This document shows positions 20,193 to 54,965 of a stretch of 64,000 bases of DNA, one piece after another (position 1 is the stretch's first letter; every line of letters starts with the position of its first letter). Made by a program: the position numbers and the translations under genes. Location: the NCBI GenBank assembly GCA_965207225.1, contig CBDBLV010000004.1, forward strand, positions 839,397 to 903,396, read 5' to 3'. A model generated the notes under the pieces. It did no database searches and was not told the DNA's origin. It worked only from the letters and a program-made list of their open reading frames with translations. The stretch is from Dehalococcoidia bacterium (GTDB taxonomy: Bacteria; Chloroflexota; Dehalococcoidia; Plut-88900).

Positions 20193-20194
20193 AT

Positions 20195-27281: not shown

Positions 27282-27346
27282 ACCATCAGGTCGCGGCGGG
27301 AGTCATCATTCAGAGGACAGAGCCGGGCGTCAGAGGAGGTTCCACC

Positions 27347-31617: not shown

Positions 31618-31708
31618 TTGCCGCGAGATGTCCTCGCGCAGATTCGATGGCGAGTTCGTTCTGCATATGGTATGATGCAATCAGAATGGAATTCATATGA
31701 GGTGAGAC

Positions 31709-31933: not shown

Positions 31934-32328
31934 TCACGTCGGTCGATACCAGCGTCCTGCTGGATGTCTTCGCGTCCGGCTCACCGCACCACTCTCAATC
32001 GCAGGTGTGGCTCATCGACGCCTACGATAGAGGAGCCATCCTGGTCTGCGACGTCGTCTACGCGGAGCTTGTACCGGCTTTTGGCGACCGCTCCTCGCTG
32101 GACGGATCCCTGCGGGAGATCAATGCGGTGGTCTCTCCGATTGACACCGCTATCGCATATGAGGCTGGATTGCGCTGGGCGCGATACCGGCAGGCGGGAG
32201 GGCCGAGGGAACGCATCATCGCCGACTTCCTGATTGGCGCGCACGCCATAGCCAATGCGGACACCTTTCTGACCCGGGACCAGGGATTCTACTCCACCTA
32301 CTTTCCCGAGCTGCAAGAACAACAGTAA
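31930..32328 (+). CDS. vapC: PIN-domain toxin
   Basis: VDTSVLLD, YAEL, ADFLIGAHA, LTRD; ATGA overlap. Confidence 0.88.
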   Translation: MITSVDTSVLLDVFASGSPHHSQSQVWLIDAYDRGAILVCDVVYAELVPAFGDRSSLDGSLREINAVVSPIDTAIAYEAGLRWARYRQAGGPRERIIADFLIGAHAIANADTFLTRDQGFYSTYFPELQEQQ

Positions 32329-32374
32329 GCCGATGGAAAGCCCATAGCTAATTGAGAAATCAGAGGAGGACGAA

Positions 32375-35547: not shown

Positions 35548-35747
35548 TGCCTTTCGTTCCGGTGTGAAAGCCGTCGCGTCCGTTCCTGCATGAGCCAGTC
35601 GCGCTCCTCCATGTACAGGCGGATGGCCTGCCTGAGCACCTCGCTCACGGTGCGCTGCTCCTCCCCTGCCATCTGCTGGAGATTCTGGGCCATGTCCCGG
35701 GGCAGGGAGAAGCTCACGGACACGGTGTTTCTGGAGTTGGGTTGCAT
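35544..35747 (-). CDS. CopG/ribbon-helix-helix protein
   Basis: VSFSLP..M...L...A..E.RTVSEVLRQAIRLY. Confidence 0.78.
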   Translation of the reverse strand: MQPNSRNTVSVSFSLPRDMAQNLQQMAGEEQRTVSEVLRQAIRLYMEERDWLMQERTRRLSHRNERQ

Positions 35748-35862
35748 CCTCACGCCTTTCGATTGCACAGATAGCATTGAGTCTTACTATACACTATCGG
35801 ACACCCGCCCTTCAATCACCCGATGGCCCCCGATGGCCGTGGACAGGGCCGGACTCAAGGCT

Positions 35863-37521
35863 TCAAACAAAGGCCCGCCTGGGTTCCATGACGTCTGGAT
35901 TGCGCCAGGCTTTGCCCAGCGGCCCGACCTTCTCCAGCCTCTCCCTATGGGACACCCACAGGGGCGGCTTCACGCCGCGGCGTTCCATCTCCACGCGGGC
36001 GACGCCGAGGAAGTTGGCCTCGGCCAGGGGATCGTCGAAGACGATGAGCGCGAGTGGCCGGTGTCCATGGTCTTCCAGGGGCCGGTTGGAGGAGTAGTAG
36101 CGCAGGTAGGGAGCGAGCCGGGCGGCCATGGTGGACGGGTTCACCGCCCGGCGCTCGTACTCCAGGAAGAAGGGCATGGTCCGGCTGCCGGTCTGCGCCA
36201 CGCCGAAGCCGTCGGGGTGGACGGAGCGGAAACTGCCGCCGTACCGGAAGTGCCGGGTGGCGTGATGGGGCGGCGACACCGCAACGACGCGATAGCCTTT
36301 CGTCCCTTTCGCCTGCCGCGTCAGCGCCGCCATGAACCGGTGCGCCGCCTCGGTGTGGTCGATGGCGCGGGCCAGGGGACGCGCCCGCGCCCCCGGCAGG
36401 TCTCGCCAGGAGGACGGAGGTTGTCCGTCCACCGGCTCGACGCTCCAGCGGCGGACGGCAGACCCCACGGAAGCCCGGTCTCTGCGGGCCAGGAAGGACA
36501 GCCCTCCATCGCTGAGAGCGAAGCGGCGCTGGCCTGCAAGATTGACCGGAGCGACCAAATCCAACCTGTTCAGACGGGCGGCAAGCCGCCACGCGCGGGA
36601 GTCGGAGAGGCCAAGGATGCCCGACAGGTCTTCGACGGTGATCAGAGGCCAGTCGGCGAGGCAGTCGAGCATCCGCTTCTCGGCGGGCTTGAGGAGGACG
36701 GGGAGCAGGTGGTCGGCGGCGTCATCGTCAATCCCGCGCAACTCGGCCTCTTCGGGCAGGGATTGTCTCGAAGTCGGCCTCTCCCAGGGAATCGCGCCGC
36801 CCTGCCGCAGGTGGGCGAATATCTCGCCAAGGGACAGGAGCGAAGGAGCGGACGTTGCGCGCCACACCCTGTCGTCGTCCGACAGGCTGGCCGCGTCCCG
36901 CTCGAGAGCCAGGTACGCCGGTCCGGGATAGGGAGCCAACAGCCGCCGCGCCTGGCGCAGCCTCGCCTCGTCGGGCGCGAGGGCGAGCAGGGCGCGGGGC
37001 CTGGATAGCTCCGGGTCAAGGAGGCTGCGCGCCCGGTCGGAGAACGCCGTACGGTCCGCGGTGGCGCCCTGCCGGATCACGCCGACGGTCCTGCCGTCAG
37101 GGAGGGTCATGGCGGCGTCCAGCGGAGCGGCGCGATACCACCGGAAGCGGGGAGGGCCGACCGCATCCGCCACCGCCGAGGCCAGTCGGTAGACGACGGC
37201 CACGGCGTCCAGGCGCGCCAGCAGGATGCGTTGCCAGTGGGCCGATACCGGATGCGTCAGCAGCAGGCGGTCGATGCCGGTTCGGTTCTCAGAAGCCAGG
37301 AATCGCAGTCCCTCCCTGGTGGCGTACCAACGTCTGGTGGGGTCGGTCAGGGGAGAGGCGTGGCGTATGGAGCCCGCCAACCCCTTCCGCCGCAGCTGGC
37401 CCAAGACGTGGCGGGCCGTGCTCTCGGCCATGTCCGATACGGAGGCCAACTCCAGGTAGTCGAGGAAGGGCATGGCCGCCAGGGTCCACAGGCTCAGCCG
37501 CTCCCGCTCTCCGGGTCTCAT
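35863..37521 (-). CDS. Replic_Relax family protein, module B
   Basis: Paralog of 29956-31617 (HPDG, FFLEYERRA). Confidence 0.72.
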   Translation of the reverse strand: MRPGERERLSLWTLAAMPFLDYLELASVSDMAESTARHVLGQLRRKGLAGSIRHASPLTDPTRRWYATREGLRFLASENRTGIDRLLLTHPVSAHWQRILLARLDAVAVVYRLASAVADAVGPPRFRWYRAAPLDAAMTLPDGRTVGVIRQGATADRTAFSDRARSLLDPELSRPRALLALAPDEARLRQARRLLAPYPGPAYLALERDAASLSDDDRVWRATSAPSLLSLGEIFAHLRQGGAIPWERPTSRQSLPEEAELRGIDDDAADHLLPVLLKPAEKRMLDCLADWPLITVEDLSGILGLSDSRAWRLAARLNRLDLVAPVNLAGQRRFALSDGGLSFLARRDRASVGSAVRRWSVEPVDGQPPSSWRDLPGARARPLARAIDHTEAAHRFMAALTRQAKGTKGYRVVAVSPPHHATRHFRYGGSFRSVHPDGFGVAQTGSRTMPFFLEYERRAVNPSTMAARLAPYLRYYSSNRPLEDHGHRPLALIVFDDPLAEANFLGVARVEMERRGVKPPLWVSHRERLEKVGPLGKAWRNPDVMEPRRAFV

Positions 37522-40154
37522 TCACCCTCCGCCGCCCTGCCGCCGGATGCGTTGAGGTCGTTCTGGTTGTCGTTCCTGCGCCGCCTGCGGGGTCTCTTGT
37601 TCTTCTTGGGCTTCGGCTGGTTCGCCGTCCCGTTGCCCGCGCTGGGCGGCGGCGGATTCCCACCCGACTGCTGTTGCCTCTGCTCCTCCTCCCGCTCCAG
37701 CTCCTCACGATACTGCTCCGCCATCTTCTCGACCTCGGCGTCCTGGGAGGCGATGGCCTCCGCCGTGGCGGTGTAGCTCTCGGCCCGCGCCTTCACCCGC
37801 TCCTCGGCGGCGGCGCTCCCCGCGTCGGGCGCCCGCACTCCCAGGGAGTAGGTGGGCTGCCTCAGCCCGTCCACCGTGGCGCGCACGTAGCACTGGTGCG
37901 CCGGCAGCGACACCAGGTCCTCCTCGTCCAACCTGTCCCGGTCCAGCTCGCCTATGAGCTGCCGGGCGTCGGACGCCGCCACCTGGAACACCGCCAGGCA
38001 TCCCACGTTGGCAAGGAGCGTGTCCTGCATGGTGAGGGACAGCTCCTTGAGCCGCGCCAGGCTCTGGGTGGCCAGGATGAACGACGCTCCGAACTTGCCC
38101 AGCTCAGACAACATGCTCTCGTAGTCCACGCCGGGCATGGACTGCATCTCGTCAACCACCACCAGCGCGCCCCGTCTCTCGTTCGGCGAGAGCCGTCCCT
38201 GCTCCCGGATCACCGCGTCGGTCAGGTTGAGCAGCGACCCTCCCACCAGGGCGGACACGTCCCGCCCAGCCGCCGACTGGGAGGTGGCCGCCAGCAGCAC
38301 CCCGCCCTCGGCGATCACCCGCCGCAGGTCAAGGGTGGAGCGGCGCTGCCCTAGGATGGCCCTAGCCTTCTTCGACGTGGCGTAGTAGGCCAGGCGGGTC
38401 TGCACCGGGGCGATGGCGTCGGCCTTCAGGGTGCGGCTCCAGTTGCGGAAGTCCCTGGCCCACCAGCCCAGGATATACGGATCGGACACGCGCCTGAGAA
38501 TCCGGCCGCGGTACTCCAGGTCCGACAGCAGCCGCAGCCCGTCCAGGATGGTGCATTGCTCGTCCTCCTTCGTGTCCGGGTGGGTGTTGTACTCGTGCAG
38601 GCTCTTGACCGTCTGCTCCAGGATGGACTGCATCCTCGGCCCCCATACCTGGCTCCACAGCCCCCTGGCGATGCGCGCCACCGAGTCCGCCGTGCGGTCC
38701 CGGTCGGGGAAGATGCGGGCGTCCAGCAGGTTGACGCCGGGCGAGCGTTCGTCGTCGGCAAGGTCGATGAGGTACGTCCTGTCCACGATCTCCTCGGGCA
38801 CGCGCCTCAGCAGGGAGTGCGCCAGGTCGTCATGGGGATCGACGACCACGATGGCGTCGTCGTTGCGGCCCGCCGCCTTCTCCCGCATCTTGTGGACGAC
38901 CAGGTGATGCATGAGCGTGGATTTGCCCATGCGGGTGCGGGCCACGTAGAGATGGTGGCGTCCCATCGCGTCGGCGGGGAAGCGCACCTTCCTCGGCTTG
39001 CCGACCACCGTGTCCCCCACGTAGGCCCCGGCGGAGCCGTTGCGGGACGAGGGAAACAGCGCCTTCGCCCCGGCGCGGGCCATCATGGGCAGCGCGTCCC
39101 CAGCCCCCAGCGGATGCCACAGGGAGGCAAGCTCCCGCACCCCCAGCACGTTGCGGCACGCCAGCAGGCTCCGCGCCGGCGGCAGCGGCTCGGTCACGGG
39201 AATCGCCGGACGAACCTTGGTCGCCCTAAAGCTGGCACCGGCCGGGTTGTTGTAGTGGCTGTAGGCCGCGGCCACGTTGCGCAGAAGCTCCCTGGCCCTG
39301 TTCTCGGCGCCGTGCTCGGACAGGATCGCCGTCACCTCCAGCTGGGCCTCGTAGGCGAGCTTGGAGACCTTCTCCTTGATCATCTGCGGGTCCTGGTACT
39401 TGCCCCCGGAACGCCACTGCTTGAAGCGCCACCAGGCCCAGCCCGCCAGGGCCGCCAGGGACGCCACGCCAAGACCCAGCAGGATCGCCTTCCAGGTCTC
39501 CCCGGCCTGTATCCACAAGTAGGCCATGAGCGCTGGCGGGACCAGCAACGCCAGGATGGTTATGGCAACCGCGTTAGTGCGGTCGATCCCGGGTTGGGCG
39601 CTGGAGGCGGAGGTGTTGGTGTCGTAGGCGGGCCTGGGGTTCGTCTTCTCCTGGTGGGCGGCGGACCAGTCCGAACCCAACGACGACAGCCGCAGCCGCG
39701 TCACCAGCCGCTCACCCTCCTCCAGGTCGGACAATGAGCCGATGACCGAGATGAGCGGGTCTGAGCCGGGGTCCAGCAGGTCGTCGTCCCCGTAGGGACG
39801 CAGGGGCAGGTACTCCGGCCCTTTGAGCCGCAGGTCCATCGACCACGCCCGCTCCCCCTCGGCCAGCCTGAGCGGGTCGTCCTCGGCGGAGACCTCGTTC
39901 ACCCTGGCCTGGGGATAGTGGGCTCCCACCTGCTGGCGCACGAAGGAGCCCTCCCGACAGCGGGCCAGCAACGTGACGCCGTCGGCGTCCCCGGCGATCT
40001 CCAACGAGAATGGTTCGGGGACGGCGATGGACTCCACCAGGTTCTGCACGCCCAGCATGGTGCGCTCCCCTGATCGGGGCGGCGTCACGGCCATCAGCTT
40101 GACGGCGGGCTTCTCCCCGCCCTTGAACAGCTTGGCTATCGGATTGAATTTCAT
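37518..40154 (-). CDS. VirD4/TraD-like coupling ATPase, module B
   Basis: Paralog of 27347-29959; AGGAGG RBS. Confidence 0.82.
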   Translation of the reverse strand: MKFNPIAKLFKGGEKPAVKLMAVTPPRSGERTMLGVQNLVESIAVPEPFSLEIAGDADGVTLLARCREGSFVRQQVGAHYPQARVNEVSAEDDPLRLAEGERAWSMDLRLKGPEYLPLRPYGDDDLLDPGSDPLISVIGSLSDLEEGERLVTRLRLSSLGSDWSAAHQEKTNPRPAYDTNTSASSAQPGIDRTNAVAITILALLVPPALMAYLWIQAGETWKAILLGLGVASLAALAGWAWWRFKQWRSGGKYQDPQMIKEKVSKLAYEAQLEVTAILSEHGAENRARELLRNVAAAYSHYNNPAGASFRATKVRPAIPVTEPLPPARSLLACRNVLGVRELASLWHPLGAGDALPMMARAGAKALFPSSRNGSAGAYVGDTVVGKPRKVRFPADAMGRHHLYVARTRMGKSTLMHHLVVHKMREKAAGRNDDAIVVVDPHDDLAHSLLRRVPEEIVDRTYLIDLADDERSPGVNLLDARIFPDRDRTADSVARIARGLWSQVWGPRMQSILEQTVKSLHEYNTHPDTKEDEQCTILDGLRLLSDLEYRGRILRRVSDPYILGWWARDFRNWSRTLKADAIAPVQTRLAYYATSKKARAILGQRRSTLDLRRVIAEGGVLLAATSQSAAGRDVSALVGGSLLNLTDAVIREQGRLSPNERRGALVVVDEMQSMPGVDYESMLSELGKFGASFILATQSLARLKELSLTMQDTLLANVGCLAVFQVAASDARQLIGELDRDRLDEEDLVSLPAHQCYVRATVDGLRQPTYSLGVRAPDAGSAAAEERVKARAESYTATAEAIASQDAEVEKMAEQYREELEREEEQRQQQSGGNPPPPSAGNGTANQPKPKKNKRPRRRRRNDNQNDLNASGGRAAEGE

Positions 40155-40300
40155 GAGACATATCCTCCTATTGCCCAGAGTCGCAGCGAAAAGAACGTAT
40201 GCGCTAATACTACCCTGTCGGCTGCGAGGAAAGCAAGGCCGCGATGACCGCAGAGGACCGCCCCGGCGCGCCGAGACGAGCCGGAACTCAGACGGCGGGC

Positions 40301-40395
40301 CGGAGGGCCTGACGTGTCAGACTACAATCGCTCAGAGACGGTTTTCGCCCTGGGAGGGCTGTAAGGGAATCAGGAATACATTGTAGAATACAATC
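40301..40395. other. Conserved intergenic block (candidate oriT), module B
   Basis: Inverted homolog of 26958-27050. Confidence 0.45.
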
Positions 40396-40538
40396 TGGGT
40401 GATATTCGTAGCTGATTGAAGGGGAATCCGAGGGAAGTGACGGGAATCCTGCGAGCAGTTTGACTGCGGGCTGGCGCTAAGTCTATTGCACTTATTGTAG
40501 TGTGGATATTGTAGTTTTCTGGGGTATAGGAGGCCCAC

Positions 40539-41414
40539 GTGAGTGATGCCAAGCAGTCCAGGCAAGGGGTTCCGGGCGACTCCGGCGATGCGACCATCTA
40601 CCTATCGGATGCCCCCCTATCGGACGACTCCCTACTGAACATGCTGGACGCCCTGGTGAATGACCGGGGCAAGGTCGCCGCGGCCAAGGCGCTGGGGGTG
40701 AACTACCGCACGATGACGGCCTGTCACGGGTCCCGCCGTGTGTCCCCTCGGATGCGGAGGGCGCTGGAGGAGTACCGGGACAAGCGCGTTGACGGCGATG
40801 GTGAGCGGGACGATGACGCTGGTGGCATTGCGAGGAAGATGGCCGCGCTGGAAGAACAGGTGAAGGCGTTGGAGACGGAGAACCAGGCCCTGCGGGAGAC
40901 CGTCGAAACACAGGCGGAGCAGATTAGAGAGTTGGAGCGCAATGCTGAAGGTCAGGAGGAAGGTGAAGGGCAGGAGATCGAGTCGGATGCGCCCGAGTCC
41001 AAGGATGAGGGTGAGGAAGGACAGAGACGCGAGTGGCGGCCTCCAAGACGGGAGCGCGGGCTTCCCGACGAGGGCGTCGTCACGTGGGAGGAACAGCCCG
41101 ACGAGGAGCGCGCCTTCGGCCCGGCGGCATCCCTGGTTGCCGAGTGGCGGGAGCTGCGGACCGGGGCTGAGGCTTTGGGCGGTCGGGTGGACCGGGCCAG
41201 AGCCTCGGTCCGACGGTGGGAGCTGGAGGTCGCCATGCTCGGCGACTACGGCCTGACGCTGCCGCCGGAGAGGGAGCCTCTGGACGCCTCGCGAAGGGAG
41301 AACCACCTGCGGTGGCGGCGGAAGGCCCTGGCCGAAGCAAGGCGGGCGTTGGCAAGGGCGGAGCGTATGCGGTGGCTCAGAAGAATGCTCACCCTCGGTC
41401 TGTGGTGGAGATGA
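40539..41414 (+). CDS. Conserved hypothetical protein, module B
   Basis: Paralog of 25969-26814, ends LRRMLTLGLWWR. Confidence 0.8.
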   Translation: MSDAKQSRQGVPGDSGDATIYLSDAPLSDDSLLNMLDALVNDRGKVAAAKALGVNYRTMTACHGSRRVSPRMRRALEEYRDKRVDGDGERDDDAGGIARKMAALEEQVKALETENQALRETVETQAEQIRELERNAEGQEEGEGQEIESDAPESKDEGEEGQRREWRPPRRERGLPDEGVVTWEEQPDEERAFGPAASLVAEWRELRTGAEALGGRVDRARASVRRWELEVAMLGDYGLTLPPEREPLDASRRENHLRWRRKALAEARRALARAERMRWLRRMLTLGLWWR

Positions 41415-41550
41415 AACGCTGTACGCTGGAGGATAGCATGAAGCGCCTGCGGCGGCCACACCCCGCTCAATGCGAAGGCCAATGCCGGTAGATGCGCTCC
41501 AGCGGAGAGATCATGCCGTTTGCGGGGAAGCTCCACTCGAAGTCAGTCCC

Positions 41551-42967
41551 GAGCTAATATCAGAAGTTGTGGAAATTGGAAATGCGTGAGTAAGAGAAAG
41601 GGCGTATCCTTCCAGGCGACTAAACCGTCAATGAGACGAGGAACTGGAGGAATACGCCGTGCGAGAAGTATACCAGACCGAAGGGAATGAGAACGTCGTC
41701 GGAGACACGCTGGAAGATATGTTCAGGGAAGGAGCGAGAAGGATGCTGGCAGCGGCCCTTGAGGAGGAGGTCAGCGCCTTCCTTGGGAGGGACCGCTACG
41801 AACGGTCCGACGAGTTTCGCGGATACCGCAATGGCTACCACATGAGCCGTGAGTTGACGGTGGGCGTGTCTGCGGTCGAAGTGAAGGCGCCCAGGGTGTC
41901 GGACGTGCCACGGGAGGTGTCTGCGGATGGATACAGTTCGCAGATAGTCGGCAAGTACCAGCGCAGTTCCCGCCAGACCCAGGAGCTGTTTCGGAAGCTG
42001 TACATGGAGGGACTATCGACCGGGGACTTCGAGCCGGCGCTTCGGGAACTGGTGGGAGAGACGACGGCGCTTAGCGCAAACGCTATCGTGAGGTTGAAGA
42101 GTCGTTGGGAGGACGAGAATCGGGCGTGGCGCAGTCGCCGCCTCGACTCTCGCCGGTACGCATATATCTGGGCTGACGGGGTGTACCTGGGAGCCGGCGT
42201 GGATCGGGAGAAGACGGCGCTGCTGTGCGTGGTGGGAGCGAGTGAGGATGGGACCAAGGAGCTATTGGGAATGGAACTCGGCTATTAGGGAGAGCGCGGA
42301 GAGCTGGGCCGGCGCGCTGCGTGGGTTGAGAGACCGTGGGATGGATACGCCGCTGCTTGCGATTGGAGACGGGGCTCTGGGTCTGTGGTCGGCGCTCGAT
42401 GCGGTGTTCCCCACGACGGGGCGCCAGCGCTGCTGGAACCACCGTGCGCTGAACCTGGCGGCGCGGCTTCCGAAGTCGTTGCAGTCGTCAGCGAGACGCA
42501 GGCTGCGGGAGATCTCCCACGCTCCCACTCGAGCGGAGTGTGAGCGGCTTCGTGACGAGTACGTCTCAGAGCTGAGCGCCGAGGGGCGCACTGATGCCGC
42601 CGAGACGGTGGTCCGGGACTGGGACTCGTTCGTGAGCTTCTACGACTTTCCGACTGAGCATTGGATCGATCTGAGAACGACGAACCCTCTGGAGTCGGTG
42701 TTCAGCGCGGTCAGGCTGAGGACGGATGCCGCTCGTCGGATGAAGCGGCGGGACAGCGTGTTGTACCTGGTGTTCAAGGTGGTCAGCAGGCTGAGTGAGA
42801 GATGGAGACCGCTGTATGGAGGTAGAAACCTGATGAAGCTGCTGATGGATGGAGCGAAGTTCGAGGACGGGGTCCTAACCGAGTTGCCGATGAGCGCTGA
42901 GGAGGCAGTCGCAGCCTGATGAACTAAACCGCCTGGAAGGAATTTCCACAACTTTTGACACAAGCTC
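41551..42967 (+). mobile_element. IS256-family IS, transposase (41659-42919) frameshifted near 42280
   Basis: IRs GAGCTAATATCAGAAGTTGTGGAAATT / AATTTCCACAACTTTTGACACAAGCTC; YRNG, IWADG, GDG..G, QRCWNH, RTTNPLES. Confidence 0.88.
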
Positions 42968-43025
42968 TCCCTTCCCCTTCCGGCTCGGATACGCTTTTTC
43001 CCAATTGAGCAGATAATCATTCAGC

Positions 43026-43502
43026 CTAGTAGTCCAGCAGTGAGTTCCTGAAGAAGTCGAGTACGACATGGCCCTCTTCGTAGAACTGTTTCACATCCTC
43101 GAAAGTAAGGTTCGAACCTATAGAGTGAGCAGTATCGTGACGATTGGTTATCAGGTTATTGTAGAACGTCTCAGCCCTTTGATTGGCCTGAGTAGCCATA
43201 ATATCATTCCTGAATGACGCTTTTATTTCGTCCCCGAATCGCTCCAACAGATCTCCTATGTTGCCAGACTGGATTCGGCTAATGCTCCCCACACATTCAC
43301 TTACGAGGCCTCTCAGCGACTCGTCTTCAATGAAATTGCACCGTTGTTGAACGATGGAATTTACCATCTGTTCAAATTCGGCATAAATCACTACCAATAA
43401 AGAATAAGTGAGTAACCGTTCGATCGGGGTTCCAAACGACCCGGTGGAGGATAAGTGATTCTCACAATCCTCCAAGGCCTTGTCGATCCGGGATATGCGC
43501 AA
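43026..43502 (-). CDS. HEPN-domain protein (RiboL-PSP/MAE_28990-like)
   Basis: YAEFE and NRHDTAH (R-x4-H); all-helical 158 aa. Confidence 0.72.
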   Translation of the reverse strand: MRISRIDKALEDCENHLSSTGSFGTPIERLLTYSLLVVIYAEFEQMVNSIVQQRCNFIEDESLRGLVSECVGSISRIQSGNIGDLLERFGDEIKASFRNDIMATQANQRAETFYNNLITNRHDTAHSIGSNLTFEDVKQFYEEGHVVLDFFRNSLLDY

Positions 43503-43513
43503 TTGATGTGCCT

Positions 43514-44635
43514 CTATCGGAACAAGACGCTTTTGGCCTGGTTGAAACGCTCACGGACTATCGATACGTCTGTTGTTCCTTGCCTTGTTCTAATGACGAA
43601 CGACTCATCATCTCGCAATCTGTTGTATCTGACCCTGATGTCATCTGGAATCGATGCCAGATTTTCTGAGAAAGCTACCATCACGGAATCCAAAACCGCA
43701 ACATTTACACCACTGCGACCATGAAAGGGCTTTTCCCCTAGGGAATCCAACACTTGTGCACAAGTGTTGCGGAATACTTCCTCACTTTGAAGGAGTAAGT
43801 TTTCTGGAGTATCACGATTTTTGCTCATGAACTTTGACAAGAAGTCCTTCATCGGTTTCTGATAGCTTGAGATATCCCTCATTGCGAAGAAACGAAGCAG
43901 TATCTCTATATCCTTCTTGCGACTATCTGGCATCGACTTGCCAAGGATTTTACGCCATTCGTCATTGGCATTCAGTCTCACCAAGAATTTTACGAAATTA
44001 CCACTATGCACGCAGTTGCGAATCTCTTGATTGGACAGCAGAGTACCTCCCGTGTTCAGGCGTTCGAAGATATGGTATATGCTCGTGTCGTCATCCGGTT
44101 CAAGTTGCTGGACAACAAAGGACCTGAGAACAGCGTTTTTTAACTTCCTTTGATCCGCATCCATGAGGTCATTAAAGGCTTTACCCAAGAAGCGACTGTC
44201 GTCATTTAGACCGCGAAGCCTAAACGTTCTCTTGCGACCTGATGCTTCGGGAAGATTCCCTTCCAAGAAATAGAAAATGCTCTTCAACCGTTGTTGTCCA
44301 TCTATAACAAGATAGTTTTGAGATTGACGCTCGGTATAGACAAACACAGGAGGTACTGGCAGGCCGACTAGAAAGGACTCGATAAGCTTACTGGATTGCG
44401 CTACCTTCCACACAAAGGCCCGCTGGAAATCTGGAATGATGATCTCACCAGCTTGCCATTTTTGATGCAAAACCTCCAAAGTGAAGTCGGCTGGGTATGT
44501 GGTGATCTGGTAGTCGGCAGGCGAACTAGTATAGTCGTCATCCTCAGAGGTGACGGGCTCTAACTCTAGGTCTGAAGAATGGAAACCCTGACGTTCAAAA
44601 TCGATACGGGCATCATAGCTCTCATGAGTTGTCAT
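43514..44635 (-). CDS. DUF262 (GmrS/ParB-like) protein
   Basis: PDFQRAFVW, SKLIES, IDGQQRL, IFERLNTGG, QEIRN. Confidence 0.88.
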   Translation of the reverse strand: MTTHESYDARIDFERQGFHSSDLELEPVTSEDDDYTSSPADYQITTYPADFTLEVLHQKWQAGEIIIPDFQRAFVWKVAQSSKLIESFLVGLPVPPVFVYTERQSQNYLVIDGQQRLKSIFYFLEGNLPEASGRKRTFRLRGLNDDSRFLGKAFNDLMDADQRKLKNAVLRSFVVQQLEPDDDTSIYHIFERLNTGGTLLSNQEIRNCVHSGNFVKFLVRLNANDEWRKILGKSMPDSRKKDIEILLRFFAMRDISSYQKPMKDFLSKFMSKNRDTPENLLLQSEEVFRNTCAQVLDSLGEKPFHGRSGVNVAVLDSVMVAFSENLASIPDDIRVRYNRLRDDESFVIRTRQGTTDVSIVRERFNQAKSVLFR

Positions 44636-44677
44636 CGCGGCCCTCCCAGACAATTATGTATGATAACCGCAGCGAGT

Positions 44678-44712
44678 GCTTGTGTCAAATGTTGTGGGAA
44701 TTCCTTCCAGGC
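44678..44712 (-). mobile_element. Isolated IS256 right end, inverted
   Basis: GCTTGTGTCAAATGTTGTGGGAATTCCTTCCAGGC matches reverse complement of 42931-42965 with two mismatches. Confidence 0.75.
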
Positions 44713-46342: not shown

Positions 46343-48631
46343 GTGAATCCGTTGACTAGCTCGCGGATAAGATATCGCCTCATTGGACTGGTGGGATTGC
46401 TATTAGCGGCGATCTCGGTATTGTCGGCGTGCGGAGACACTCCAGCCGCGCCGCCTGCTGGCGATAGCTTAGCCATAGTGCCAATCGCTACTGCCACCGC
46501 CACCCATACGCCGACCGTAACCGTTACCGTCTCACCGACAACCACACCATTCCCTACGCCGACCGCCATCGCCACAGCGGTAGTGCCCCATACACCGACT
46601 TCCACCGCTTCGCATACGCCGACCGCAACCGTTACCGTCTCGCCGACAACCATAGCGGTCCCTACGCTAACCGCCACCGCCACAGCGACGCCCACGCGCA
46701 GACCTACCCGCACTTCTCCAACGCCAACACCCGACCGTCGGAATGCTGACGATCTGGCCGCGCTTGTTGCCTTGTATGATTTAGCTGGCGGCCCAGATTG
46801 GTCATACAACAGATTTTGGCTTAGCGACGCTCCGCTTGGCGAGTGGTATGGGGTGAAAACAGACACCAACGGTCGCGTCATAGAGATAGACCTTGGAGCC
46901 ACTTTCGGTGGCTTCTACATCGGCGGCAACAATCTCAGCGGAACAATTCCGCATCAACTAGGACACCTTTCAGAGCTAAAGGAACTCGTACTAACTGGAA
47001 ACCCAAGATTGGGGGGAGAGATTCCCCGCCAATTGGGGCAGCTTTCCAAGTTGGAACAACTTACGCTCTCTGCAAACGACCTGAGCGGGTCTATCCCGTC
47101 GGAACTGGGGCGGCTTTCCAACCTTCAATGGCTTAACCTCTCCGATAACAACCTGAGCGGGTCTATCCCGTCGGAACTGGGGCAGCTTTCCAAGTTGGAA
47201 CAACTTGCGCTCTCTGCAAACAATCTGAGCGGGACTATCCCGCCGGAACTGGGGCGGCTTTCCAACCTTCGATGGCTTAATCTCTCCGATAACAACCTAA
47301 GCGGGAATATTCCGTCGGAACTGGAACAGCTTGCTAATCTGGAAGACCTGAGAATACACAACGCTAACTTGAGCGGATGTATTCCAGAACGCCTGTGGGC
47401 CGTGCCTAAGAGCGATCTTGTGTATTTCACAATGTGGAACCAATGTGTGCCTACGCCCACTCCAACTCCTATTCCGGGACCGGGCAGCAGGCAAATTCCA
47501 CTACCGTTCGGGGTTCCGGCAGAGGTCAGGAACAGTGAGGATGACCACTGGCAGATGACGGTGCTGAACATAATACCGAACGCTACTGAGGTCGTCATGG
47601 CTGAGAGCCATTTTAACGATCCGCCTGACGTGGGGGAGCAATTCTACATAGCAAGACTACGGGTGAAGTACTTGGGCCCCGATTCCAACAGTTTCAGTGG
47701 CATAGGCAGATTGAGAGCCGTTGGTGACGGCGGGATAGCCTATACGAACGGTTCGTGCGGAGGCTTCATTGAACGCATCCCCGACCCTCTCCTTTATCCG
47801 GAGCTATTCACTAACGGGACTATTGAAGGCAACGTCTGCTGGCATATAGTCTCATCCGACGCCGCCTCTCTGCTGATGTTCGTGGAAGGACCCGGGTATT
47901 GGCCCGACAGTAGCGAACGGGTTTGGTTCACTCTTTCCGGCGGCGTTCTACCGACCCCAACGCCAACGCCGACTCCAACACTCACGCCTATGCCAACCAT
48001 CACACCCACGCCTGGGCCCATCTCTACACCTGCAGACCTCGTGGAGCGAGTGAAGGATGGCGTAGTACAGGTCAGGGCAAGCACTGGTTCGTTCTTCGTG
48101 TTTTCTTCCACCGGCTCCGGGTTCATATTCGACGTAGAAGGAACTACGGCATTCGTAGCTACGAACTACCATGTCGTAGAGGGTGCGGACTCCTTGGAGG
48201 TCACGGTTCGCAACACGGACTCCTACGAAGCGTTGGTTCTGGGATGGGACGCTGATAGAGACGTGGCGGTTCTCGCCATATGCTGCTCGGAAGACTTCGC
48301 AGCGCTATCTTGGGAGGAGGCGTCGCCCGCTGTGGGGGCGCAGGTCGTTGCGGTAGGGTACCCAGACGGCGGTTCGGCGAGCCGCGTTACTGCGACTACG
48401 GGTGAGGTTGCGGAGGGGGACGCTCTGAGTGAGCAGCACGGCTATATCCGGCATACGGCGCCGCTGAACCCGGGCAACAGCGGCGGTCCGCTGTTCTCGA
48501 TGCCGGACGCCAAGGTCCTGGGAATCAATACATCTCGCGGCACACAGACACTCAGCTTCTACGCCGTGCCCTTGCAAGCGATTGCGGGTCAGATGGTGGA
48601 GTGGCGCAAACAACTGGTGGTCAGCCCGTAG
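46343..48631 (+). CDS. Lipoprotein: Thr/Pro linker, plant-type LRRs, beta-sandwich domain, trypsin-like serine protease
   Basis: Lipobox LSAC; 24-aa repeats NNLSG.IP.ELG.LS.L; triad motifs TNYHV, DVAVL, GNSGGP. Confidence 0.88.
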   Translation: MNPLTSSRIRYRLIGLVGLLLAAISVLSACGDTPAAPPAGDSLAIVPIATATATHTPTVTVTVSPTTTPFPTPTAIATAVVPHTPTSTASHTPTATVTVSPTTIAVPTLTATATATPTRRPTRTSPTPTPDRRNADDLAALVALYDLAGGPDWSYNRFWLSDAPLGEWYGVKTDTNGRVIEIDLGATFGGFYIGGNNLSGTIPHQLGHLSELKELVLTGNPRLGGEIPRQLGQLSKLEQLTLSANDLSGSIPSELGRLSNLQWLNLSDNNLSGSIPSELGQLSKLEQLALSANNLSGTIPPELGRLSNLRWLNLSDNNLSGNIPSELEQLANLEDLRIHNANLSGCIPERLWAVPKSDLVYFTMWNQCVPTPTPTPIPGPGSRQIPLPFGVPAEVRNSEDDHWQMTVLNIIPNATEVVMAESHFNDPPDVGEQFYIARLRVKYLGPDSNSFSGIGRLRAVGDGGIAYTNGSCGGFIERIPDPLLYPELFTNGTIEGNVCWHIVSSDAASLLMFVEGPGYWPDSSERVWFTLSGGVLPTPTPTPTPTLTPMPTITPTPGPISTPADLVERVKDGVVQVRASTGSFFVFSSTGSGFIFDVEGTTAFVATNYHVVEGADSLEVTVRNTDSYEALVLGWDADRDVAVLAICCSEDFAALSWEEASPAVGAQVVAVGYPDGGSASRVTATTGEVAEGDALSEQHGYIRHTAPLNPGNSGGPLFSMPDAKVLGINTSRGTQTLSFYAVPLQAIAGQMVEWRKQLVVSP

Positions 48632-48803
48632 CAGGCTGCAGAAGAAGGCTTGCTGAAGTCGCGTTCCCAAGGTTGTCGAGATAGAATGCACTCACCAACC
48701 CGACCAGCCGCAAAGGCGAACGTCCCATGAGAGGTCGGGGCAGTCCCCAGTTCACCATGCTCGCCTTCGTCAACCTCGACGGGCGCGTCCCAACGAGCCT
48801 GCT
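48630..48803 (+). mobile_element. Internally deleted IS5-group remnant (MITE-like)
   Basis: Ends AGCAGGCT / AGCCTGCT; encodes MRG...Q.TM..FV.LD.RVP, typical of an IS5-group transposase N-terminus. Confidence 0.55.
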
Positions 48804-50611
48804 CGACATAGACCTCGACTTCCCCCGCTCCATCAGGAACGAGCTGATCGAGCGAATCCACCGGCGCTTCGGCGTCGAGCGCGCCGTCCTAGCGGGCGCC
48901 GTGTCCACCTATCGGACTAGGGGCGTCATACGGGACTTGGGCAAGGCGCTGGGACTTCCGGGGGAACGGCTGGGCTTGCTGTCCAGGCGGCTGGGTTCAG
49001 TTTCGGCGTCGGAGTTGCGCGATGAGATGTTCAAAGCGCCGGACTTCGCCGACGCGGTCGACGCTCCGGGCTGGCGGGACCTGCTGGAGATGGCCTCGCA
49101 TCTCGCGGGCGCGCCGAAGTCGCTCGGGCAGCACGTAGGCGGCATGATCCTGAGCGGCTCCCCCATCCCCGAGATGACGCCGACGCGCCCCTCGGCTATC
49201 GAAGGACGCTTCATCATGGACTGGGACAAGGACAGCGCGGCGGACGCCGGCTTCGCCAAGATAGATATCCTCTCCCTCCCCGTGCTCGACCAGTTGGAGG
49301 AGGCCCTCGACCTGGTTGAGGAACGGGAGGGCGCGCGGCCCGACCTCGCCGCGATCAACCCCGAAGACGACGGCGTCTACGACATGATCAATACGGGCAT
49401 GGCCAAGGGGGTCTTCCTGCTGCAGTCGCCGGCGCAGCTTGCGATAGCGCGACGACTGAAGTCGCGCAACCTGCTGGACATCGCCTACCAGGTGGCGCTC
49501 ATACGTCCGGGGGTGGGCGTCCAGGGCAGCGCGGTGTCGCAGTTCATCGAGCGCTACAGACACGGGGCAGAGTGGGATTACGACCATCCGTTGGAGAAGC
49601 GGGCGCTGGAGCGCGGATGCGGGGTCATCATCTGGCAGGAGCAGGCGGTCCAGCTGCTGATGGACGTGGGCGGATTCGGAGCGGGAGAGGCGGACGAGGT
49701 ACGGCGAGCGTTCGCCAGGTCGAACGCCGAAGACCTGGTGGACGCGTACAGGCGGAGGTTCGTGGCTGGAGCCAAGAGCCAAGGCGTTCTGGAGGACGTC
49801 GCTCTGCGCATTTTCTCCAAGGTCAACGGCCACTACATGTTCCCCGAATCGCACTCTCACGCCTTCGGGGTGACGGCCTACCAGGCCGCCTGGCTCAAGA
49901 GATACCATCCGCTGGAGTTCTTCGTCGCGCTGATGAACCAGCAGCCGATGGGCTTCTACCCGGTCGAGTCGCTGAAGCAGGACGCGAGGCGATTCGGCGT
50001 TCCGTTCCTGAACCCGTGCGTGAACCGCTCCGGCGCGGACTGCTCGCCGCTGGACGGCTCGGTACTGGTGGGACTGCGCTTCGTGAAAGACGTGGGCGCG
50101 GACGCCGCGGTGCTCATCGCGGTCGAGCGCGTGCGCGGTGGCGCGTACCTGGGCGCGGGCGACTTGGCGCGGCGGACTGGTCTGAAGCCGCGCGCTGTGG
50201 AGTCGCGCGTTCGACGGGGTAAGCCCGAACCGCAGGGCGGTGCTCTGGGACGCCGGGCTGCACCCTCGCCCCGGCCGCAACGGGCAGGCGACGCTGCCGG
50301 CCAACATGGACGACGGGGTACCGGAGCTCGCCGACTTCACCGCCGCGGAGAAGATGGCGGGGGAGTACGCGACGATGGGGCTGTATCCTCGCGGGCATCT
50401 CATGGAGTTCGTCAGACCCACGCTGCCGCGCTCGGTGATTCCCGCCGCCAAAGTGGAGTCTCTCGGCGACGGCGCTCCGGTGACGGTGGCGGGCTGGCCG
50501 GTGGCGCGCCAGCATCCGAAGGGACGCGAGGGCGTGGCGAACGTGATCGCGTCGTCCGTCCGCGCGATTCCTGTGGGAGTCCGGATGCCGCCGTCGCATG
50601 ACTGGCGGTGA
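48804..50611 (+). pseudogene. dnaE2: Error-prone DNA polymerase III alpha (DnaE2/ImuC-like), truncated and frameshifted
   Basis: DIDLDF, GQHVGG, KIDIL, ALIRPG, FPESHS, NQQPMGFY; PHP domain absent; frameshift near 50210. Confidence 0.82.
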
Positions 50612-51458: not shown

Positions 51459-51661
51459 CGCTTGCGCCACACCCATATCCATGCCAACCACGGCGGAGGG
51501 TCGCGCTGATCCCAATGATCCATGGGCGAACCCGCCGTGTCAGGGCGTCATAAATGTCGCCTCCGACCGCGTCCAGGGTATCAGCCCCCACCCGTTTGCT
51601 GCTCTCGCGCAGCTGGTGGTAGCTCAGGCACGATCTCGTGTTCTCAGACGTCCGATAAGGC

Positions 51662-51865
51662 GGTGGTCCAGTCCACGTTCCAAGTTCAAGCCGAATCCGG
51701 CTCCCCTTGAGCTTTCCGAAGTCACTAGGCTAGGGTATCATCCTCCTCGGCCTGATCTGAAAACCAGTCGCAGCTCGGCGTAAACAGCGTTGTGGCTTTT
51801 GGGCAAGCTCTCCGCGAAATCACGAACGCCCGCTGGATCTCATGCGAGGCTCTGGCTCAAATATA
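51662..51865 (+). repeat. Dispersed promoter/end repeat, copy 2
   Basis: Aligns with copies 1 and 3; TTTCCG-17-TATCAT at 51713-51741. Confidence 0.85.
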
Positions 51866-51914
51866 AGGCTTAGGTTATCGCGCGCGAGACTGCATAGTAG
51901 AGGCAGGAGGTACG

Positions 51915-52826
51915 GTGATGACAGAGTACTTGATGCGAGCGGACTTGTCGTTTGGACACTTTAAAGGCGTCCCGGTTTCCACGGCGCTCCCTGTCAAATT
52001 AGGCCCGTTCCAACTGGACCAGTCGCCCAATGCCGCGCTGTATCTTACCGAGCGCGGTCTTTATGAGCCTGACCAGGTCGGTCAGGTGCGACGCGACTCT
52101 GCATTCCCAATGTCATTGCTGTACCTCGAACGGAAAGTTACATGTGCCAGGGGCGCGCCTCCGACGAAACATGCCGACGACGCTTTGGATCGCCTCGAAC
52201 GTCTCCTTCGCATATTCCAATCCGGCGAGGTTTCGGTCCGGCGTCATGGAGTATGGCGCATTCACCAGAACGGTGGTCTGACGCCTGGTTGGTCCTTCTC
52301 TGGGTACGATTTCAGACCAGTCAAGTCGCCGATCGAGGGACTTCGTGAATACGGCGATTACCCACTCGATGACGCCACGCTGGGCAAGGTCATCAAGTTC
52401 GTCGCCCGGTTCTGGGATGTGCTCGACGCGGTCCCTGATAACCTGCAAGTTGCAATGGCTCGGCTCAGTTCATCCTACGAGAAGCGGGATGGCTTGGATC
52501 GTCTGGTCGACTTGGTCATTGCGCTAGAAGCCCTATTCGGCGATCGTAGTGGCATCTCCACAATCGCAAAGCGTGGAGGTTTTTGGCTGTACAAGACAGA
52601 AAGTGAGCGACGGAACGCTTCCAAGACCATCAAGAAGCTCTACAGACACCGGAGCAGGGTTGTCCATGGCGGGCCGGGTAGAAATGTCAGAGAACAGGAG
52701 ATGAATGGTCTCGAAGCGATGGTGAGGTCGTCTCTGATAAAGTTTTTGAATTGTCATGTGCAACAGGGGAAGCCACCAAGCCCAAGAGACATAGATCGTC
52801 TGATCATGGATGGAAAATTCCAATAG
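51915..52826 (+). CDS. ApeA-like HEPN-domain protein
   Basis: LVIALEALF and LYRHRSRVVHG (R-x4-H); AGGAGG RBS. Confidence 0.75.
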   Translation: MMTEYLMRADLSFGHFKGVPVSTALPVKLGPFQLDQSPNAALYLTERGLYEPDQVGQVRRDSAFPMSLLYLERKVTCARGAPPTKHADDALDRLERLLRIFQSGEVSVRRHGVWRIHQNGGLTPGWSFSGYDFRPVKSPIEGLREYGDYPLDDATLGKVIKFVARFWDVLDAVPDNLQVAMARLSSSYEKRDGLDRLVDLVIALEALFGDRSGISTIAKRGGFWLYKTESERRNASKTIKKLYRHRSRVVHGGPGRNVREQEMNGLEAMVRSSLIKFLNCHVQQGKPPSPRDIDRLIMDGKFQ

Positions 52827-53167
52827 CGGCTCTGACTTGCAATATCGTTGGCACAGTCACTCAGTCAGATGCAGTTCGCTTGAAACCAGAATTGGCAACA
52901 ACATGCGGTTTGAGGCTCGTGCTTAACGGGGTGCGGAAGGGAGGGTTGCAGAGCGGCATCGGCCACACAGGAGCACTCACCTTGGCGATTTCCTTACGCT
53001 CCAAGACGAGACCGGACATGCGCTGGTATTCGAGGAGCGTCGATTCGAGATACGAGCGCCGGACCTGCTGGTTCATGGGCGGGTCTCCCGTCGTCAGGGC
53101 GTCATGAACGTCGTCGGTCGCCTCAGGGGCATGGGACTGCCCCATGCGCTGCCGCCCTTGCGAGGCT

Positions 53168-53341
53168 GGCGGTCCAGTCCGCGCCTCCCGCGTTCAAGCC
53201 GAAATTCGGCCTTCCCGGAGCTTTCCAAAGTCTCCAGGCTAGGATAGTATCCTCCTCAGCCTGATAGCTGAGAAACCAGCCGATTCTCGTGTGAAGCGCC
53301 GATTCTCACGTGTGGGTAATCCCCGTGAAATCACGAAGGCC
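53168..53341 (+). repeat. Dispersed promoter/end repeat, copy 3, ending at att core
   Basis: TTTCCA-17-TAGTAT at 53222-53250; runs into GGCCCACCA. Confidence 0.85.
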
Positions 53342-54965
53342 CACCATTTTTGACGGTAGACAGAACCGAGCCGTTCAGGGCCATCTCCTCGGCGTTTCTC
53401 CCTCCTACCGGTCCATCCTGAGGCATGGGGATGGTGTACCGGAGGAGGGCGTTGTCGGGCATGACGACGATCTCCTTGACGAAAGACTCGATGAAGGCCC
53501 TGCGCTCGGTCAGTTCGCTCTCCTTCAGGAACTCGCTCATGTCCTGGGCATAGGCCGCGATGGTCTCCACGTCGTCCAGCACCTCCCTGCGCTGGGAGAG
53601 GATGGTCCTGGCCTCGGCCGCCGAGTCCTCAAGGCGCTGTTGACGCTCCCGGTGCTCCCTGATGCGTTCCGAGGCGTCGGCCATGTCGAGGTCGGTGTTC
53701 TCCACCAGGTGCCAGACGCGGCCCAGCTTGCGCTTGACCTCATCAAGCTCGGCCTCGATGGTCTCCAGCTTCTGCCGCTGCTCGGCGGCGACCCCATCCA
53801 TCTCCTCGTCCACTATCTTGACCAGTTCGGTGATGTTGGACTCGGTGAGGACGTTCTCCCGTATCCTCTCCACCACCATCTCCTCGAAGCGTCGTGCGTT
53901 GAGCCTGGGGGTCGTGCAAGCGTTCTTGCCCCGCTTCATGATGGACTGGCAGACGTAGTAGGCGAACTGGCCGCTCTTGGCGTCCTGGCCTGAGAGCGCC
54001 CTGTTGCAGGACTTGCACCTGACCAGCCCGCTGAGCAGGTAGGAGCTTCCCACCCTGCGGGGGTGGTTCCTTTTGGGGGCGCGGGAGCGCATGAGCCGCT
54101 TGACGCGGTTGAATTGGGCCTTGGAGACGACGGCGGGGAACGCCTTCTCTATGCGTACGGGGTCGGACTTGACCTTCCCTGTAGTGCCCCAGAGCAGCGT
54201 GCCCGTGTAGACCTCGTTTCTGAGGATGAAGTGGACGCCGTTCTTGGACCAGAGCTTGCCGGTGGCGCTGGCGATGCCCTCGCCGTTGAGTGTGCGGGTG
54301 ATTTCGGTCATCCCGGTGGCCGACTCGGCCATGTCGAAGATGCGCTTGACGACGGGAGCAGTGTCAGGGTCGATCTCCAGTGTGGGCCGCTTCTTGGCTC
54401 CGTCCTGCACCATGACGCGGTTGTAGCCGTAGGGCGTCCGGCTGGCGACCCAGAAGCCTCTGGAAGCGGCCTCCCGCATCCCACGGCGAACCTCTTCCGC
54501 AAGATTTTCCGAGTAAAACTCATCGACGGACTCGATGATGCCCTCAAGGAGCCTGCCGGTGGCGGTGTCGTCGGCCTGCTCGGTGATGGAGACGACGCGG
54601 ACGCCCTTTCGCCTGAGCATGGACTTGAAGGCGACGGCGTGCTCGCGCTTTCTGGTGAATCTACTAAATTTCCACACAAGGATTTTTCTAAACGGGGCCT
54701 CGGGCTTGGCGACCTCGTCGATCATCTTGCGGAACTCCGGGCGGTCGGCGACGCGCCCGCTCTCGGCCTCGTCCACGTACTCGCGGACGACCACGTAGTC
54801 GTTCTTCTGGGCGTATTCCCTGAGCGCCCGCAACTGTGCGGCCACGGACAGGTCCACGTCCTGTCTGTCGCTGGAGACCCTGGCGTAGAGGGCCACGGGG
54901 GTGTAGTCGCTTCTATTGTTCATCTGTGAGTCCTCCTCCTGTTTCCTGTCGTTCCCGTGGGCCAC
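53331..54965 (-). CDS. Large serine recombinase C
   Basis: YARVSS, recombinase domain, Zn ribbon CKSC; ends VKNGGPS*. Confidence 0.95.
   Translation of the reverse strand: MAHGNDRKQEEDSQMNNRSDYTPVALYARVSSDRQDVDLSVAAQLRALREYAQKNDYVVVREYVDEAESGRVADRPEFRKMIDEVAKPEAPFRKILVWKFSRFTRKREHAVAFKSMLRRKGVRVVSITEQADDTATGRLLEGIIESVDEFYSENLAEEVRRGMREAASRGFWVASRTPYGYNRVMVQDGAKKRPTLEIDPDTAPVVKRIFDMAESATGMTEITRTLNGEGIASATGKLWSKNGVHFILRNEVYTGTLLWGTTGKVKSDPVRIEKAFPAVVSKAQFNRVKRLMRSRAPKRNHPRRVGSSYLLSGLVRCKSCNRALSGQDAKSGQFAYYVCQSIMKRGKNACTTPRLNARRFEEMVVERIRENVLTESNITELVKIVDEEMDGVAAEQRQKLETIEAELDEVKRKLGRVWHLVENTDLDMADASERIREHRERQQRLEDSAAEARTILSQRREVLDDVETIAAYAQDMSEFLKESELTERRAFIESFVKEIVVMPDNALLRYTIPMPQDGPVGGRNAEEMALNGSVLSTVKNGGPS

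Follow-up and report, generated by a model that had tools for sequence, protein, structure and literature searches.

A repeated non-coding module ahead of unrelated genes in a Dehalococcoidia island and its junction with a serine-recombinase element

Within an island of mobile elements and defence genes, why does the same non-coding sequence precede genes that are unrelated to one another, and why does one of its copies end exactly where a conjugative element begins? The question is raised by a stretch of 64,000 nucleotides from a Dehalococcoidia bacterium (GCA_965207225.1, contig CBDBLV010000004.1; hereafter the window, with positions counted from its first letter), which carries three copies of a repeat that we call U. 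A preliminary description of the window read U as a portable promoter beside a recombination site, an integron-like slot in which serine recombinases accumulate defence genes. We tentatively favour another reading, in which U is an upstream non-coding module and one of its copies was struck by a conjugative element, C, at a non-canonical site.

The repeat and the genes that follow it

By blastn, the copies of U lie at 12664–12851 (minus strand), 51658–51854 (plus) and 53163–53342 (plus) and share 72.6–75.5% pairwise identity (E values from 1e-25 to 1e-28). A profile built from the three copies (nhmmer) places them at 12662–12865, 51652–51854 and 53158–53353, and both searches bear out the number of copies given in the preliminary description. 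The copies, their surroundings and the genes beside them are the following.

12662–12865, minus strand: U1, intact; TTTCCA at 12807–12802, TATCAT at 12784–12779, ATCACGAA at 12699–12692
51652–51854, plus strand: U2, intact; TTTCCG at 51713–51718, TATCAT at 51736–51741, CCTCCT at 51742–51747, ATCACGAA at 51819–51826
53158–53342, plus strand: U3, cut on its 3′ side by element C; TTTCCA at 53222–53227, TAGTAT at 53245–53250, ATCACGAA at 53330–53337
51503–51602, plus strand: upstream extension common to U2 and U3, 65% identical to 53056–53152 (blastn)
52861–53145, minus strand: open reading frame (ORF) of 94 aa overlapping the upstream extension of U3, doubtful as a gene
11164–12582, minus strand: gene after U1, 472 aa, ATG at 12582, with a putative C-terminal NDT/DNPH1-like fold
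51918–52826, plus strand: HEPN-family gene, 302 aa, between U2 and U3

All comparisons of U rest on these three copies. No fourth or partial copy was found in the window by blastn at E < 0.01, the additional matches of the profile are at chance level (E 2.2 and 9.1), and a search of the window with the right-arm consensus added none. As had been described, all three copies keep TTTCC(A/G), a spacing of 17 nt and TA(TC/GT)AT, together with CCTCCT and ATCACGAA. The best-conserved block (alignment windows 61–100) has 15 of 20 columns invariant; in these roughly 40 nt the hexamers, which resemble −35 and −10 promoter elements, are set in an imperfect inverted repeat of 10 predicted pairs, the pairing of which is broken in only 1 of 30 cells.

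Past the point at which U3 is cut, U1 and U2 are still similar to each other for 24–33 nt, and their common right arm, CRCTGRAYCYYATGYGAGRCTMTG, is absent elsewhere in the window and was matched in 0 of 100 shuffles. Thus, U3 is truncated and element C lies inside the repeat, not at its end. We put the length of U at about 200–230 nt, or at least 300 nt if the upstream extension of two copies is included. Indels of 1, 2 and 3 nt separate the copies and argue against a coding sequence; U is probably non-coding. The 94-aa ORF beside U3 has only two weak relatives (P0306 and P0307) among 1.84 billion representatives. Both are small predicted ORFs on two other contigs and cover the extension and the 5′ part of U, which indicates that U is present outside this genome. 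P0306 aligns to 53226–53020 with 59% identity, where the copy in the window has an in-frame stop. A role of the 94-aa ORF as a divergent regulator was considered and dropped in view of its two weak relatives and a poor structural model, calculated from a single sequence (pLDDT 58.5).

As the preliminary description has it, copies 1 and 2 each lead into one gene, and the two genes are unrelated. Its further statement that each of these is followed by another copy holds for copy 2, after whose gene copy 3 lies; after the gene of copy 1, blastn, nhmmer and the right-arm search found nothing. The 472-aa gene starts 109 nt past ATCACGAA of U1. Its product has more than 2016 homologues, many of them 80–95% identical and of constant length, and matched none of the Pfam, PADLOC and NCBIfam models, PDB sequences, or plasmid and phage collections searched. 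Its AlphaFold model has a pLDDT of 82.9. With Foldseek, the C-terminal domain of the model matched NDT, DNPH1 and MilB with a probability of about 1.0 but at E values of 0.01–0.09 (none at E ≤ 0.001) and TM scores (target) of 0.5–0.68, and an Atlas lead at 0.84 likewise points to an NDT-like protein. We regard the designation 'NDT-like' as a fair lead from these models; that the 472-aa gene is a defence gene is unproven.

The 302-aa gene starts 91 nt past ATCACGAA of U2. Among 62 homologues of its product, one is named a HEPN domain protein by its source. Across 25 sequences of the family, R245 and H250 are invariant within RSRVVH, i.e. the R-x4-H motif (R-x4-6-H in HEPN proteins at large). 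HEPN_RiboL-PSP is matched by five of the 25 members (best E 3.3e-4) and HEPN_Apea by one, at E 0.13. The protein is therefore a HEPN protein, as had been proposed, but these matches do not support an ApeA-like protein in particular. The G+C content of both genes is below that of the elements described below. 'Chloroflexi bacterium' among the source names of homologues of both genes points to a host in the Chloroflexi.

The promoter proposed in the preliminary description stands in so far as the hexamer pair lies in the most conserved block; only the pair of U1, matching at 9 of 12 positions, passes the 9-of-12 threshold of the scan for a sigma-70-like consensus. Position and conservation make a promoter or operator role of U no more than a reasonable guess.

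The junction with element C and the flanks of related recombinases

Three elements with related conjugation modules lie in the window, and two of their boundaries define the recombination site.

25974–33940, plus strand: element A, conjugation module related to those of B and C
33940–41409, minus strand: element B, conjugation module related to those of A and C
53338 (or, counted from the end of U3, 53343) to 64000, minus strand, running off the window: element C, conjugative
53331–54965, minus strand: large serine recombinase (LSR) of C, with Pfam Resolvase, Recombinase and Zn_ribbon_recom domains
53338–53346, plus strand: crossover core GGCCCACCA, adjoining U3
33916–33967: near-palindrome at the A/B junction, GGTTCT-N7-GTCAAGTC-CGGCCCACCA-GACTTGAC-N7-AGAACC
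12688–12687, minus strand: TC of U1 at the crossover-equivalent position; right arm 12687–12664
51830–51831, plus strand: CC of U2 at the crossover-equivalent position; right arm 51831–51854

Each element encodes a TrwB-like coupling protein, a Replic_Relax relaxase, a small toxin/antitoxin or ribbon-helix-helix (RHH) gene and a terminal LSR. The cargo of C comprises the recombinase, HigB/HTH, Replic_Relax, TrwB_AAD_bind/TraG-D_C, a TraG P-loop/TraC protein (a VirB4/TraC-like ATPase) and a pilin of a type IV secretion system (T4SS). An integrase, a relaxase, a coupling protein and T4SS genes, the constituents of an integrative conjugative element (ICE), are thus all found in C. A and B are without secretion genes and resemble integrative mobilizable elements (IMEs).

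The recombinase ORF of C crosses the core, and its TGA stop (53331–53333) is supplied by ATCACGAA of U3. Homology between B and C begins at GGCCCACCA (53338–53637 against 33938–34237, 81%), which confirms that the third copy ends in the recombinase core as first described. The LSRs of B and C share 78% identity; their similarity breaks off exactly at ..GGP, the codons spanning the core. At the A/B junction, two convergent recombinase ORFs, 32375–34039 (plus strand) and 33592–35547 (minus strand), both read through the near-palindrome. The centre of its dyad makes CC at 33941–33942 the likely crossover dinucleotide, and by the same symmetry the crossover in U3 would fall on CC at 53341–53342; at the matching position, U2 has CC, whereas U1 has TC. 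Homology that ends at a short core beside the recombinase gene is what an attL-type junction of an LSR looks like, and U3/C reads as a true element/flank junction at the recombinase crossover site. At the level of sequence, the alignments demonstrate that C is inserted into U3 at the crossover core.

The arms of the repeat tell a different story. Within the window, the arm motif of the recombinase type is confined to 33916, 33950 and 53350. All three recombinase-proximal arms carry TTGAC at +8 and AGAACC at +20, at fixed offsets. In contrast, the five arms of U, 40 nt each, contain neither TTGAC nor [AC]GAAC, i.e. none of the half-site motifs of an LSR attB. The recombination site that had been placed at the repeat can hence be upheld in part: one copy abuts the crossover site and U2 keeps CC, but the arm motifs are missing. 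The mirror symmetry noted earlier holds only loosely, with U1 (minus strand) 21 kb to the left and U2 (plus strand) 18 kb to the right of the A/B junction; the intervening DNA is unrelated. An inversion model, in which U1 is a former attL of B, was dropped, as U1 is intact across the crossover point.

Since the recombinase ORF continues past the core, the flank next to each relative can be read from its C-terminal tail. There were 4805 matches at E ≤ 1e-50 among 8000 scored; the following refers to the best 120 of these 4805 (P0186–P0305), of which 117 could be anchored. All 117 are conserved to ..VKNGG and diverge beyond. Tails were classified by regular expressions. Fifty are tRNA-like, of the x-R-T-x-D type such as AEGIRTPD...LSYSP, and presumably correspond to antisense tRNA genes, judging by the T-loop consensus. 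Nineteen have 14 residues and end in ..TELRTFRWEVLI (the 'ELRTFRWEV' class), a tail unrelated to U and not found in the window. Another 19 read 77–114 residues into the antisense strand of another recombinase, as do four more after a spacer. The remainder comprises 25 other tails and the three that could not be anchored. An element-type tail, with the P-type register, is present in 42 of 117. No U-type tail occurs among the 117 anchored relatives; U is not a flank shared by close relatives, as an LSR attB is expected to be.

The first RT, which corresponds to the AGAACC/CGAACC motif, falls on position 5 of the tail in 48 relatives and on position 7 in another 32, so that tRNA-like tails have the arm motif 6 nt closer to the core than the other class. 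The half-sites of attB are shorter than those of attP, and the 6-nt shift fits this geometry. One relative, P0187, which shares 99% identity with the LSR of C and represents 27 sequences, has a tRNA-like flank. A tRNA-like arm in U3 itself was discarded: by our own reading, the degenerate back-translation of the P0187 tail agrees with it at only 6 of 18 specified positions, no better than chance. Likewise, U is no tRNA or tmRNA; ARAGORN found no such gene anywhere in the window.

The tails also disclosed a recurrent arrangement that is independent of U. The A-type and B/C-type recombinases are 55% identical and convergent, their ORFs overlap by 448 nt (33592–34039), and the near-palindromic att site encodes VKSGxPDLT in both directions. 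The same convergent layout recurs in 19 (plus four variants) of the 120 relatives, which corresponds to about one in six sampled members of the LSR family being paired with a different recombinase across an att site in coding sequence. The partner was A-type in all four relatives tested, whose tails matched the A-type antisense in 75–99 of 113–114 residues. An origin of the pairs by fold-back of a single gene into a self-palindrome was rejected, as the B/C antisense matches only 34–49 of about 100–120 residues. As the att core lies inside the recombinase ORF, each recombination replaces the C-terminal tail, and the length of the protein ranges from 515 to 708 aa (531–708 among the 117 anchored). 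One relative, P0186, has 643 aa, shows 100% identity with the LSR of C along 97% of its length and ends in a convergent-pair tail, a hint that the assembly contains another copy of element C of very recent origin. Literature searches returned no description of U or of convergent recombinase pairs, a weak indication that both are unpublished. Of more interest than U itself is this by-product of the study, the recurrent convergent LSR pairs with a common att site in their coding sequence, and since the tails of these ORFs extend into the flank, integration contexts can be read from protein databases alone.

Weighing the origins of the repeat

U stands in sense orientation ahead of genes that have nothing in common, and the island around it abounds in defence genes and mobile elements. 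In the reading that we tentatively prefer, it might act as a shared upstream module of the promoter or operator type. Element C entered the third copy by means of its LSR; as sequence comparison shows, the break coincides with the crossover core, some 10 nt past ATCACGAA, and U3 lost its last 25 nt or more. The association between U and the recombinases looks incidental, because on the left this family is usually flanked by tRNA-like sequence or by an end of another element and because U is devoid of half-site motifs. For the same reasons, U3 would be a secondary insertion site rather than a dedicated cassette site. Among the proposals of the preliminary description, the fallback that the repeat is a target site comes closest to this.

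Several points weigh against this interpretation. The hexamers of U2 and U3 match at 8 of 12 positions by our own count, and the scan listed neither. At the DNA level, U was not seen in other genomes, although this refers to one strict 20-base pattern scan of genome contigs; the pattern, AGCTTTCCNAAGTCNNNAGNCTAGG, had a single match, in coding DNA of a metagenome-assembled genome of an unrelated Firmicute, with no further similarity and thus by chance. The plasmid and phage collections likewise contained no DNA match to U. The 117 tails come from the best 120 of 4805 matches, and U-type junctions may occur further down. By our own reading, the element arm of B agrees with the right arm of U1 in 11 of 19 positions in register and with that of U2 in 9 of 19, a resemblance that hints at a relation between U and the recombinase arms. 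Finally, cutting at a motif-less U is better accounted for by the accretion of elements considered next.

According to this alternative, which we consider rather unlikely though it ranks ahead of the others, U is the far-end (P-side) terminal region of a family of related elements and U3/C is a junction between neighbours in a tandem array. The 1.5-kb segment U2-HEPN-U3 would then be a decayed, recombinase-less remnant resembling a cis-mobilizable element (CIME), and U1 and U2 would mark the ends of larger elements, A at 12.7–33.9 kb and B at 33.9–51.8 kb. Arrays at one target would explain why near-identical recombinases lie beside three different left flanks (tRNA-like, recombinase and U). 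Element-to-element junctions are common, as the P-type register in 42 of 117 tails indicates, and U, if it is an element end, need not be a target and need not have attB-type motifs. Moreover, U1 (minus) and U2 (plus) are found at the far side of A and of B, respectively, where DNA of high G+C content towards the element gives way to genes of lower G+C content, and a review on IMEs (PMC5704250) describes such a route. The segment U2-HEPN-U3 lacks recombination and transfer genes. However, U2 appears to be intact and not a hybrid site, and the 24–33 nt that U1 and U2 share to the right of the crossover are a better fit to an intact unit than to two independent junctions. The recurrent P-type tail, TELRTFRWEVLI in 19 of 120, is unrelated to U, so that the usual far end is different, and none of 117 relatives reads into U. 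In addition, U1 has TC instead of CC at the crossover, and A and B cease to be homologous at 25974 and 41409, a long way from U1 and U2.

Next comes the unlikely case of a relic without function, for example a decayed gene start or a piece of a mobile element, that rearrangements of the island duplicated. It would be in line with the upstream extension being called as the small ORFs P0306 and P0307 elsewhere, with the in-frame stop in the window copy, and with the many insertion sequence (IS) fragments and truncated genes of the island, for instance the DnaE fragment at 48727–50601. Against decay, a 40-nt block is far better conserved than the rest of U, the intact copies have the same orientation and a similar distance to the start of the gene that follows, and no similarity of U to any IS or coding family was found.

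It is improbable that U encodes a small RNA or a structured cis-regulatory leader. Transcripts started from the hexamers, should these act as a promoter, would have long 5′ leaders (about 165–190 nt), a hairpin at alignment columns 123–143 keeps its pairing through two-sided changes in three pairs, and U3 folds better than its shuffles on the plus strand (z −2.13) and the minus strand (z −2.75). U1 (z −0.98) and U2 (z +1.36) fold no better than theirs, though. Even permissive Rfam searches of the three U regions gave nothing inside U, the sole match (E 0.21) being located just outside U1. The covariation term of the consensus fold, an analysis already suggested in the preliminary description, is about zero (0.02) on the plus strand and 2.14 on the minus strand, where the sign reads as unfavourable; with three sequences it has almost no statistical power. 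Neither a known RNA family nor a consistent fold was thus found for U by Rfam, shuffling and covariation, and the leader RNA offered earlier as a second fallback receives no support.

Two bolder ideas receive still less credence. In the first, U would be a landing-pad recombination module with its own promoter or operator, in and out of which serine-recombinase elements and segments like U2-HEPN-U3 move, and would thus amount to a counterpart of cassette exchange based on serine recombinases. The second does not depend on U: the renewal of the C-terminal tail of the LSR at each recombination, with A-type and B/C-type enzymes recurrently placed tail to tail across one att site, could be a mechanism of state sensing or mutual targeting between elements.

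The idea of an attC/attI-like site with an outward promoter, at which serine recombinases swap and express defence cassettes, is the least credible of all: one U copy has demonstrably recombined with an element att site, U2 retains CC at the same place, circularisation of the U2-to-U3 segment at CC would restore an intact U, two unrelated genes (one encoding a HEPN protein) follow U in a neighbourhood rich in defence genes, and the report on the PLE element discussed below (PMC6002521) supplies a precedent, but there is a single event and no array, none of 117 recombinase relatives adjoins U, half-site motifs are absent from U, the promoter-like hexamers are weak, the gene after U1 belongs to a very large conserved family without a PADLOC match, and Pfam scans of the window found no tyrosine integrase.

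The island and its precedents

The island character of the window emerged from Pfam scans of 56 ORFs and from PADLOC. Its G+C content is 61.7%, many transposase fragments are scattered across it, no Rfam match reaches the gathering score, and the region 40000–64000 has no near match in the plasmid and phage collections. Its defence genes include the following system.

12945–22129: type I restriction system, with TIR-like, 8xMP and DUF2806 genes embedded

The embedded genes, encoding a TIR-like protein (ThsB_TIR), an 8xMP membrane protein and a DUF2806/Abi_alpha protein, are placed between hsdR and hsdS (16079–18241), and a Phd-type antitoxin pair separates hsdS from hsdM. At 1457–4282, there are two adjacent DndB-like genes, the second of which is a fusion with an N-terminal Swt1-like HEPN domain. 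A 1.8-kb unit of low G+C content (45%) at 42931–44712 ends in 42-nt inverted repeats with 90% complementarity and carries a GmrSD/NsnA-like gene and a RiboL-PSP HEPN gene; it is flanked by fragments of Mutator-type and DDE_5 transposases. An LRR-trypsin gene contains tandem coding repeats (46490–46687 and 47031–47390), namely 72-nt LRR units and a 108-nt repeat with 86% identity. The DnaE-type polymerase fragment at 48727–50601 (624 aa) aligns with the alpha NTPase domain of Pfam from position 100 onwards, its N-terminal part being absent, and precedes an SRAP (YedK-like) gene located immediately upstream of U2. At their putative outer ends, homology between A and B starts at TCCACCA (25960–25990 and 41395–41425), which resembles the CCACCA of the core and is not followed by a recombinase-type arm motif. 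CCACCA at these far ends and GGCTAGGGTAT at 22545 are consistent with chance.

Had it held, the integron-like reading would have described a second origin of the integron principle, based on serine recombinases. The evidence is not sufficient for it. What stands is an uncharacterised repeat upstream of unrelated genes, one copy of which records the off-consensus insertion of a conjugative element. How far does this resemble systems already described?

The element/flank junction behaves like any serine-recombinase integration. Durrant et al. (2022; PMC10083194) describe site-specific and multi-targeting LSRs, with which the recombinase of C shares the Resolvase, Recombinase and Zn-ribbon domains, the sharp junction at a short core and close relatives in different flanks. 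The present case differs from what is described there in that the att core lies inside the recombinase ORF and the flank has no arm motifs. DUF4368, which the same paper connects with the multi-targeting clade, is not among the Pfam matches obtained here. As to recombinases of plasmids, the closest ones stay below 31% identity.

Tandem accretion of ICEs, IMEs and CIMEs is treated by Guedon et al. (2017; PMC5704250). A module without recombination and transfer genes that adjoins a full element between direct, att-bearing repeats corresponds to U2-HEPN-U3, and the related elements A and B joined at att sites fit the scheme as well. Differences are that the repeats here are non-coding sequences of 180 nt with 74% identity, that serine recombinases make no duplication and that U1 and U2 look intact rather than hybrid.

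A further group of islands moved by LSRs is the staphylococcal cassette chromosome (SCC). Its recombinases CcrA and CcrB move islands that can form composite arrays at the 3′ end of rlmH, bounded by short repeats of about 15–20 nt. Common to SCC and the window are LSR-moved islands that can form arrays bounded by repeated integration-site sequence. In contrast, the recombinases of the window are not Ccr equivalogs (143–168 bits with the NCBIfam CcrB model against a cut-off of 900), and their elements carry conjugation genes.

The platform of class 1-type integrons consists of intI, attI, the promoter Pc and cassettes with attC. With U it has in common only the idea of a promoter by a recombination site with variable downstream genes. 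A tyrosine integrase, attC-like structures and an array are all missing here: the 56 ORFs gave serine recombinases and DDE transposases and no phage-integrase domain, and the three copies enclose one gene between two of them. Furthermore, two of the three U copies are not beside a recombinase gene; U1 and U2 lie 21 kb and 18 kb from the nearest one. The integron-like slot accumulating defence genes, the central claim of the preliminary description, is thus not sustained by the flanks of the 117 relatives, by the arms of U, by the layout of the copies or by the nature of the gene after U1.

In Vibrio cholerae, the dispersed repeat is the integron attC, which is present in more than a hundred copies and has its own tyrosine integrase. 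In the window, there are three copies of U and no integron integrase, and the recombinase family resides mainly in tRNA-like flanks. With these differences, the phage-inducible chromosomal island-like element (PLE) of V. cholerae is the nearest precedent for an element that uses a dispersed repeat by means of a serine recombinase. According to McKitterick and Seed (2018; PMC6002521), PLE recombines with attC of the V. cholerae repeat. Like C, it is an LSR element that has its partner site in a repeat dispersed between genes and flanking short gene cassettes.

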